A DNA stretch of 64,000 nucleotides from Nitrosopumilus sp. (GTDB lineage: Archaea > Thermoproteota > Nitrososphaeria > Nitrososphaerales > Nitrosopumilaceae): positions 32,001 through 96,000 of the forward strand of contig CBDBGZ010000008.1 of assembly GCA_965205425.1 (NCBI GenBank), written 5' to 3'. The position numbers are program-made. Below are positions 24,001 to 27,000 of the stretch, one piece after another. Position 1 is the first letter of the stretch; each line of letters starts with the position of its first letter.

Positions 24001-27000
24001 ACGTTCGTGTTTTCAGGGGATAATACAACAACTTGAATAATTGAATTTAAGGGATAGAATCCTGAAGAGAAATAATTTGATCTGTTGATATTTTCAATAT
24101 TGAAAAACTTCAATGGTGTAATATCTGACATCCCTAATGCCTGATTAGGATAATTTGCTGATAGTTTTAGCTGTAACAATGATTTAGAATCCATTGGTAG
24201 TATTGAAAATGTCATTTTAGCATTTTCATTTGTTGATAAATCTCTTGCAACTTTATAGAATCCTTCTCCGTCTCTAATTATTTTATGAACCAAAAGGGCG
24301 GTGACTTTGTCATACATGGAATCTGTGTCTTCCATTGGTAATGTGTAAACTACTGAAATGATGCCTTTACCTGAAATTACTCCTGATGTTTCTAATGCTG
24401 CATTTGTTTGATCATTTGTATGTACGTACACTGAATGGTATTTTGCATTTGTATCAAACATTTGGTTGATTATATCGATGTATTCGTCCCCAATTTTCCT
24501 TGAATTTTCTTGAATCATAATGATTCCTTTGTCTTCTGGATTTCTTTCAACATTAATCATAATACATGATTCATTTTGAACTCCAAGAACACATTGAACT
24601 TGATTTGTTAAAATCACTGCTTTAATTCTATGATCTTCTCTAATTTTTTGTTCTAATTCTGCAGGAATTTTGATTTCTTGTATGCTAGTACTTTGTAAAG
24701 TAATTGATGCTGTTACATTTTGAGATATGCTTTTGTCAATAACAAGTTGAGCTGTTTCTTGAAATGTGGAATGACTTATTTCTTGACCCCATGCAAAGTT
24801 GGTAGTAATTCCGACTAATGCAATTAATGTTAGAAAAATTATTGTGTTATGCACGAAGTGGACTTTAGAAATGAAATTATTAACTTTTCTCTTCTTTTGT
24901 ACATAGATGATCATTTGATCGTAGTTTTTTTTATTTTTTAACAAGAATACCTTATCTGGTAACTAATATTCCCATATTTCATGATATTAGGTTGATATGG
25001 CACTTATTCCATTCCTTGTTGATCTTTTTCTTCATCCAATAATTCAACTAATTGCTGTTTTGAGTGCATTTGGAATTGGATTATTTCAAGGAATTGTTCT
25101 TGGTAGAGCCATTTTGATAAGATTCCCTCGTTTACAAAATCATGTAAAAACTGTTTCAATCACAATGTTTGTTTTATTTTTAATAAACGCAATACTAAGT
25201 GTTCCTCGTTTTGCCTCTCCTGAAAAAATTAGCCTTTCAAATTTATCTGCAAATAGTCCTGGTGAAGTTACATCTGCACTTTTTTTGATTTTTGGAATGA
25301 ATACTGGATTTCTAACTGTACTGGCAATTTCTGTCACGGTGATGAGCTTTGTGGTTTTAAAATTCACCAATCTTAATGGAATAACTAAAGCGTTTGTTTT
25401 TCTTTTTAGTTTATTTATTTTAATATTAACTGGTATCAGTAGATTCACTGATCTAACCCCCACTGCTTTTGAAGTATTATTATATTTCCTTTATCAGTTA
25501 GGAATCACTATTGGGATTTTGATTGGTTCTATTAGAAAGATTAAACCTAAGAAATTGAATTTAAAATAATTTCAAACGTTTAAATCAGATTATTATTGTC
25601 TTGGAATTGACATCGAATTCAAACCGTTCGGGGAACACGCCGGCAGTCCATGCGTTGGACTGTCGGCCCCATTTATTCTAAAATTTAGTTTAATGATGAG
25701 AGTGTGTTTACTTGGTCTTTAACATAGTCAAATCCCTCTTGCCAGAATTTTGGACTCCTAATATCAAAGCCATACTCTGAGAGCAATTTTTCAGGCTTTT
25801 TGGAACCTCCTGCTGCAAGAATGCTAATGTATGCTGGAACAAAGTCTTTTCCTTCTTTTTTGTATCTTTGAAATAGTGACAATGCAAGTAAATTCCCAAA
25901 AGAATATGCGTAACAATAAAACGGTGTATGGTAAAAATGAGGAATACAACTCCATTCTATTGCAAAATCATCTGATAACTCCACTGAATTCCCAAATTGT
26001 ACTTTAAGATTCTTCAAATAGGTTTTTGAGATTTCATCAATTGTAGTTCCGTTCCCAATTTGTTTGTGAGCATCCACTTCAAAGATTGTGAAAAATGATT
26101 GTCTTAGAATTGTCGCATACAAATCATCAATTTTTTCTGAAAGCATAGTCTTTTTTTCGTCATCAGAAATTTTGCTGGATAAATTATCGTATAATAATAA
26201 TTCTGAAAAGGTTGATGCTGTTTCTGCTAAAGGTAATGGTGCATCTTGAACAAGAATTGATCTGTCTTGTGCAGCTTGACTATGAACTGCATGGCCCAAT
26301 TCGTGAGCTAAAGTAAATACATCTCTAGATTTACCTGTAAAATTTACTAAAACATAGGGTGTGATTTTTGGCGTTAGAGTACTACAAAAAGCTCCATCTC
26401 GTTTTCCTTGCCTTACTGCTGAATCTATGTGATTTTCATTGAATACTTTTCGGGCATATTCTTCTAAGGTGCTACTAAATTTCCCAAGTGATTCAAAAAC
26501 CAGTTTGACTGATTTATCGTATGAATAATTTTTCTCTTTAATGTTGGATGCTGCAGGTGCATACAAATCATACCTTCGTAATTTTTTCATTTTTAGCATC
26601 TTTGCTTTTTGAGTGAAAAATTTTTGAAAAATAGGAGAGTTTTTCTTACAAATTGAGAGTAAGGACTCTATAGTTTTATCATCTACATCATTCCCGATAT
26701 TCCTCATAGATATTGGAGATTTGTAACCTCGAATTTCAATACCCTCATCTTTCCAATTAAGAACAATGTTTTGGTATATTTCTCCAACAACTCCTTTATT
26801 TTCAGAATATTTTGAAAGAATTGTTTTGTATGCTGTTTCTCGAATTTTTGGATTTGTACTTCGCACATAATTTGTAAGCTCTTCTCTTGTCATGTTTTTG
26901 GATTTGTTTCCGATTTTCATTTTGTATTCAAAGGAATTAGTAATTTTGTCATACAATTTGACAAGTGCAGAAATTCCAGTTACATCTAATGTGTTTATGA

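Follow-up and report, generated by a model that had tools for sequence, protein, structure and literature searches.

To our knowledge, a pocket hairpin and, in archaea, a K-turn stem bound by L7Ae have been treated as required for RNA-guided pseudouridylation. The rule reported for archaeal H/ACA RNAs places the ACA box 14–16 nt from the target U (PMC4652768, PMC7991803); the stacked lower stem and guide-target helix set this distance, and the ACA binds the PUA domain of Cbf5 (PMC4652768, PMC7991803, PMC7075261). Cbf5 is reported to tolerate four unpaired target bases, of which the 5'-most unpaired U is modified; in such atypical pairings the ACA is needed and the enzyme relies more on the 3' arm (PMC7075261). 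Pseudouridine 2588 of Pyrococcus abyssi, a modification reported to be conserved in eukaryotes, is made by motif 1 of Pab40 in vivo and in vitro (PMC2377435), and snR46 is the guide for yeast pseudouridine 2865 (PMC8307265).

We analyzed a 64,000-nt stretch of a Nitrosopumilus sp. genome (assembly GCA_965205425.1, contig CBDBGZ010000008.1, positions 32,001 to 96,000 of the forward strand), referred to here as the window. A GC-rich candidate RNA gene at 25609..25676 (+) lies in a 115-nt intergenic gap between a 190-aa ORF (+) that ends at 25569 and has no NCBIfam family, on its 5' side, and a convergent M3 oligoendopeptidase gene (−) that ends at 25685, on its 3' side. The coordinates and sequence of the element agree with a preliminary description of the locus. 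Its features are as follows.

25573..25585, + strand, archaeal promoter-like element: a purine-rich BRE-like stretch and the TATA box TTTAAAT at 25579-25585
25609..25616, + strand, 5' guide arm, pairing with 23S U2500-C2507; predicted 5' end of the RNA
25617..25618, + strand, junction (0–3 nt among copies), facing the looped-out U2496-C2499; site of the upper stem and K-turn in a canonical H/ACA RNA
25619..25626, + strand, 3' guide arm, pairing with 23S C2488-G2495 and ending beside the predicted target U2496
25629..25633, + strand, CGGGG of the third helix, pairing with 23S G2487-C2483 and standing in for a lower stem
25635..25637, + strand, internal ACA box, invariant, at 16 nt from the partner of G2495
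25639..25667, + strand, covarying 12-bp hairpin, whose length and loop differ between families
25668..25677, + strand, CCC with a U-rich tail; predicted 3' end

Counted from its first T, the TATA box lies 30 nt before the predicted +1 (G25609), and an RNA of ~65–70 nt would be made from this promoter. We compared 119 distinct loci, a set that leaves out G093 and the loci from ACA-requiring scans. The first T of the TATA box was 29–30 nt upstream in 107 of these 119 copies, all of which had been chosen for a TATA-like word 18–36 nt upstream. When the check was made without such selection, a TATA box ~30 nt upstream was found at 67 of the 69 archaeal matches and at none of the 11 bacterial chance matches among those listed, and at 0 of at least 120 matches on viral contigs. 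Contigs from four metatranscriptome runs include one, X8, that covers the RNA and extends into an upstream TATA-like stretch and the peptidase gene; because it runs past both sides of the RNA, it is informative on neither strand nor ends. In a marine TSS supplement (PMC5069720), the motif searched for was not found, and the sole M3 peptidase row stood in the euryarchaeal table.

A second copy of the RNA, differing by one letter within it, was found on contig C4 in a ~10-kb syntenic block with 90–92% identity to the contig of the window (C8), and the contamination of the assembly is 5.23%. It is plausible that this copy belongs to a second strain or haplotype, as had been suggested. The gapped guide motif occurred three times in the genome, in the two RNA copies and in 23S rRNA, as the preliminary description had it, and the absence of an Rfam assignment was likewise borne out: no family matched over the element at E≤10, and none rose above noise on six named homologous loci. 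Two further observations were made in the surroundings. Genes for a TFIIB-like and a TBP-like protein, named from their translations, stand in tandem at window positions 27717-29214, ~2 kb downstream of the RNA. Many multi-copy elements of 0.3–1.3 kb occur on C4 and C8, in the window from ~29200 onward, with transposase-like ORFs at 29257-31376.

With E. coli numbering fixed on the 2904-nt E. coli 23S gene, which confirmed the positions given before, the 5' part of the RNA is predicted to pair with 23S rRNA over 2483-2507 in three helices (20 bp) that leave U2496-C2499 unpaired. Both helices described earlier, and the loop at 2496-2499 between them, were recovered, and the third helix, which extends to C2483, had been missed. 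The energy of the 18-nt bipartite duplex was again −22.1 kcal/mol; with the third helix, which was kept on co-folding of the whole RNA, it reached −32.5 kcal/mol. When shuffled 26-nt guides were each scanned over the whole 23S rRNA (median −22.0), 1 of 100 reached −32.5, a weaker contrast than the 0 of 300 reported before. Because of this tie, the duplex energy of a single genome does not settle the matter, and the case is carried by conservation. Among 5176 seeded genome windows, the 23S site was the best non-self partner, the runner-up being −26.2.

The 119 copies comprise 29 distinct guide variants and are kin, not independent. The 5' part of the RNA had been called invariant, but it varies opposite several target bases. 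Opposite U2506 the copies have A (117) or G (2), and opposite G2495 they have U (102) or C (17), both of which pair. The base facing U2500 is A in 82 copies, G in 32 and non-pairing in 5; that facing C2507 is G in 102 and non-pairing in 17. The companion claim, that the target does not vary, held for the rRNA copies seen: in one comparison all archaeal rRNA copies had the same stretch, and a separate one gave two other variants, in G153 and G155, outside both families that carry the RNA. Because the target is invariant, there are no two-sided changes between guide and target. Of 31 guide variants, 30 are predicted to form a duplex that leaves U2496 without a partner; these were counted in a wider locus set that includes loci from an ACA-requiring scan. 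The junction measured 0 nt in 17 of 17 copies from the sister family.

GGG of the third helix was present in all 119 copies, whereas the 3' CCC, with which it could form a 3-bp pairing, was present in only 65. In the free RNA of some lineages the G-run can pair with the 3' CCC. A circularly permuted H/ACA RNA, with the 3' CCC as the 5' strand of the lower stem, was nevertheless dropped as a general model because the 54 copies without CCC all retain GGG; such permuted pairing may occur in the free RNA of some genera.

The ACA box was found in 119 of 119 copies, about half of which had been detected by models that score the ACA columns, and also in 56 of 56 copies of a set found with an ACA-blind pattern; among the chance matches listed, it occurred in 12 of 120. 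Its distance from the base that pairs with G2495 was 15 nt in 65 copies, 16 nt in 50 and 17 nt in 4, so that the spacing of an ACA/ANA box 14–16 nt 3' of a target U was kept except in these last 4. The bases flanking the ACA vary on both sides, and the ACA itself has no partner in the rRNA. An ACA/AUA-like tail had been described; the conserved ACA is instead internal, and the sequence of the 3' tail is not conserved.

The covariation claimed for the downstream hairpin was upheld: over 43 sequences, 96.1% of cells were paired and 10 of 11 pairs showed two-sided changes, a result matched by 0 of 500 shuffles. On folding of the element, the + strand had an energy of −29.5 kcal/mol (z −4.06) and the − strand one of −21.7 (z −0.93), and the + strand gave the better fold in 87 of the 119 copies (− strand 23, ties 9). 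At least four U residues followed within 10 nt 3' of the hairpin in 75 of 119 copies. The hairpin is probably a 3'-end stabilizer or terminator.

An ACA-blind motif search of 151 Nitrosopumilaceae genomes (family f1), whose tally also counts 23S rRNA hits, returned at least 56 copies including that of the window, and a covariance model was built from 43 of the 56. At E≤1.5e-6 this model found the RNA in 60 of 74 further own-family genomes, chosen mostly for failing the exact motif (61 of 75 with G093 counted). The 14 genomes without a strong match included six less than 80% complete, one 84% complete, all four genomes of genus g5, and the near-complete G008, G033 and G019. With a sequence-only model of the 5' part, built partly on sister-family sequences first met as weak hits, the RNA was found at E≤1.5e-6 in 17 of 18 genomes of sister family f3, contrary to the earlier remark that it had no convincing match outside one family. 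We infer that f1 is Nitrosopumilaceae and f3 Nitrososphaeraceae. A scan of GTDB genomes gave at least 117 stretches; among the 80 listed, 69 were archaeal and 11 bacterial, and the genera in the record titles included Nitrosopumilus, Nitrosarchaeum, Nitrosotenuis, Nitrosopelagicus, Cenarchaeum, Nitrosotalea, Nitrososphaera and Nitrosocosmicus. Such conservation indicates that the RNA is real. The peptidase gene flanks it at 28 of 29 f1 loci and at 0 of 13 f3 loci tested, and the f3 loci keep TATA box, guide and ACA with a different hairpin; the element therefore moves as a unit with its promoter.

No homologue below E 0.03 was found in 51 genomes of families f2, f4 and f5 and of other orders, and the weak hits could be put down to helix 45 of 16S rRNA, to a short repeated stretch or to chance. 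Guide copies with a UA linker (such as L154, L166 and L172) have 13 letters in common with 16S helix 45, over its 5' strand and loop; this helix lies near 79780-79815 of C4 in the Nitrosopumilus genome; because of these shared letters, the 5' model matched 16S in genus g5. The likeness is probably a coincidence; other copies differ in the linker and in the base before the ACA, and no 16S duplex is better than −22.0. In G185 (contig C137, family f6) we noted a structured intergenic stretch, L104:500-655, that has both guide arms five bases apart and hairpins on its flanks. It was rejected as a candidate, having no G-run, ACA or TATA box and no convincing match in five relatives.

The offset of 92 between P. 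abyssi and E. coli numbering was calculated with E. coli sites that we take to be correct. By this offset, and by the Rfam consensus of Pab40 motif 1, whose 5' pocket CGAGG is complementary to C2498-G2502, Pyrococcus 2588 is probably E. coli 2496. Yeast 2826 is reported to equal E. coli 2457 (PMC11077068), and by the same offset of 369 yeast pseudouridine 2865 corresponds, on position numbers, to E. coli U2496. The Nitrosopumilus genome encodes Cbf5 (NCBIfam equivalog, E 3e-118), Nop10, Gar1 and an L7Ae-family protein (a Pfam-family hit with two matches); the Gar1 gene was found twice.

The RNA was not found in the near-complete genomes G019 (98% complete, one contig), G004, G031, G055, G008 and G033 or in family f2. 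Co-loss with Nop10 or Gar1 was ruled out, since both are present in 5 of 5 genomes without the RNA. Because lineages without it keep U2496 as well as Nop10 and Gar1, gene co-occurrence gives no support. Pattern searches of 40 and 45 genomes for a canonical U2496 guide in these lineages returned matches at control level with no shared structure. RF00064 exceeded its cut-off in 0 of 41 and 0 of 150 genomes and had no match in the Nitrosopumilus genome. G019, G004, G031 and G055 are candidate natural losses in which the modification state of U2496 could be compared.

Membership in the canonical H/ACA class fails on two defining features. Two guide arms do flank an unpaired U, with four bases looping out and not the typical two. 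However, a junction of 0–3 nt takes the place of an upper stem bearing a K-turn or K-loop, and a K-loop-like word occurs in the 3' hairpin of only 12 of 119 copies. Nor is there an intramolecular lower stem of 7–9 bp, and no conserved sequence lies 5' of the guide. Box C was found in 0 of 119 copies and CUGA in 25. The lack of C/D boxes and of a standard H/ACA pocket had been recognized in the preliminary description. RNAs of the Sulfolobus and Pyrobaculum type, which keep a K-turn hairpin and lose lower stem and ACA, show the opposite pattern, and the HgcG/Pab40 covariance model (RF00064) gave no match to the new RNA.

We also looked for relatives. In the Nitrosopumilus genome, a GC-rich promoter scan returned, apart from tRNA, rRNA and scattered hits, nothing but this RNA, an ACA-ruler scan scored no better than shuffled targets, and a canonical-hairpin scan found none. 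An unannotated, canonical-looking single-hairpin H/ACA RNA was seen in family f2 (L259:1698-1772, G216:C15), with an upstream TATA box, a C-rich/G-rich lower stem, a GAG...UGA motif, a terminal ACA and a weak partial RF00064 match; the canonical form therefore exists in the order. Sub-threshold RF00064 hits in families f16, f19, f24, f29, f34 and f42 of the phylum (L378-L392) resemble real single or double H/ACA hairpins with a terminal ACA, and in f19 they are found immediately downstream of what reads, from its sequence, as an SRP-like RNA. Literature searches by topic and by literal sequence found no description of the RNA; their scope stopped short of genome-paper supplements, where an unnamed earlier listing is possible. 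In a classification of H/ACA RNAs (PMC4652768), no mention of Thaumarchaeota was found.

Three features speak for a Cbf5 guide: an ACA inside the RNA, its constant spacing from an unpaired U at which H/ACA guides direct pseudouridylation in yeast and probably in Pyrococcus, and the third helix. We consider it probable that the RNA directs formation of pseudouridine 2496, having lost its upper K-turn stem and borrowing its lower stem from the rRNA. The earlier account of a stand-alone RNA antisense to the peptidyl-transferase loop and absent from Rfam is supported, and the mechanism it left open can be narrowed. Before helix 89 closes, the 5' 25 nt of the RNA would form three helices with nascent 23S rRNA (at 2500-2507, 2488-2495 and 2483-2487). 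Those two that lie 5' of U2496 would stack to ~13 layers and replace the canonical 3'-pocket helix and lower stem, the missing strand of the latter being supplied by the rRNA; the 13 paired rRNA positions 2483-2495 and one spacer base may make up the length of the H/ACA ruler. The ACA would anchor the PUA domain of Cbf5, and U2496, as the 5'-most base of the 4-nt unpaired loop, would be placed in the active site and converted to pseudouridine, while the downstream hairpin would protect or define the 3' end. L7Ae is probably not bound because there is neither an upper stem nor a K-turn. Against such a guide, the ACA is only three letters, and the 20-bp duplex is longer than a typical pocket, so that release would need help; the 17-nt spacing in 4 of 119 copies and the failure of the scans described above to find a second RNA of this build also count against it. 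Moreover, all guides in the papers compared keep a K-turn upper stem, and the atypical Sulfolobus guides are reported to have needed L7Ae and Gar1 (PMC11077068).

The length of the duplex over 2483-2507 and the lack of an upper stem and K-turn would suit an RNA that modifies nothing and, in large-subunit assembly, keeps both the central loop and the 3' strand of helix 89 open, possibly bound to Cbf5 like snR30/U17; snR30, an H/ACA RNA, is reported not to guide pseudouridylation (PMC7601244). We regard a folding chaperone of this kind as the main rival, but as unlikely. It leaves unexplained why the ruler spacing separates the ACA from a U to which H/ACA guides are directed in yeast and probably in Pyrococcus, and that the RNA was not found in the six near-complete genomes and family f2 is more readily understood if it serves a dispensable modification than if it is an assembly factor.

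The loop also presents A2497-C2499, and an enzyme other than Cbf5 could be guided to these looped-out bases or to the flanking duplex, for example for what are presumably a 2'-O-methyl at C2498 and a base modification at C2501. The absence of box C and the scarcity of CUGA noted above, a loop without CCG (the acetylation motif), the pairing of C2501 and an ACA left without a role all argue against such a guide. Guides that present a bulge are known for acetylation (PMC9670809), but even so we think this reading very improbable. Still less probable is an antisense regulator or hibernation RNA that would block the peptidyl-transferase center or mark rRNA for cleavage under starvation. Its own promoter, its strong complementarity to a functional center and the rank of the 23S site among the seeded windows agree with that role; the target stretch, however, is buried in the mature subunit, and a blocker has no reason to skip four target bases or to hold an ACA at a fixed distance. 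We give the least credence to the reading that there is no transcribed gene and that the terminator hairpin of the convergent peptidase gene merely adjoins a conserved DNA motif. The peptidase gene does flank nearly all own-family loci tested, and the metatranscriptome contigs do not show a discrete transcript. Yet at the sister-family loci, TATA box, guide, ACA and a different hairpin are kept beside other genes, and the terminator-like site and the G-U pairs favor the + strand.

If the RNA is a Cbf5 guide, an ACA and a guide-substrate helix of the right length would suffice, which would define a minimal guide and bear on the design of short programmable guides. Stemless guides would be invisible to hairpin-based H/ACA searches, and therefore more may be hidden in mesophilic archaea. 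Should it turn out to be a chaperone, the peptidyl-transferase center would have a small archaeal RNA that acts on its folding, of which a literature search by topic found no description. In either case, the RNA is conserved across two large families of ammonia-oxidizing archaea.

Among known systems, snR46, whose pseudouridine falls on the same base by the offset given above, is a eukaryotic two-hairpin snoRNA, unlike the new RNA. Atypical H/ACA-like RNAs of Pyrobaculum, reportedly described by Bernick in 2012, are grouped with the Sulfolobus type. snR30/U17 likewise bears an ACA and pairs with rRNA, but is a large eukaryotic hairpin RNA acting on 18S processing (PMC7601244). Stem-loop 2 of Haloferax volcanii sR-h45 has four unpaired target bases between its arms and requires the ACA, as in our model, but it is a full hairpin with a K-turn and its target is helix 69 (PMC7075261). 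Motif 1 of Pab40/Pf7/Afu4 (RF00064, HgcG) apparently has the same target, given the probable equivalence of position, and the same order of 5' arm, 3' arm, G-run and ACA, the ACA being internal and followed by another hairpin; its lower stem is intramolecular and 8 bp long and its upper stem bears a K-loop, and the new RNA lacks both stems (PMC2377435). G-runs before the ACA are common in canonical guides, and descent from motif 1 stays one candidate origin. The Sulfolobus islandicus RNAs sR109, sR136, sR148 and sR563 are likewise truncated Cbf5 guides without an intramolecular lower stem, but in them the ACA is gone and the K-turn upper stem is retained, as is dependence on L7Ae, so that the new RNA is their mirror image (PMC11077068). 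It is possible, though slightly less likely than not, that it is the first of a third architectural class of Cbf5 guides, one of ~30 single-stranded nucleotides ending in ACA that has no pocket hairpin, lets the substrate complete the lower stem and does not need L7Ae. In the truncated guides known so far, the ACA end is missing and the K-turn end present; the new RNA is built the other way round.
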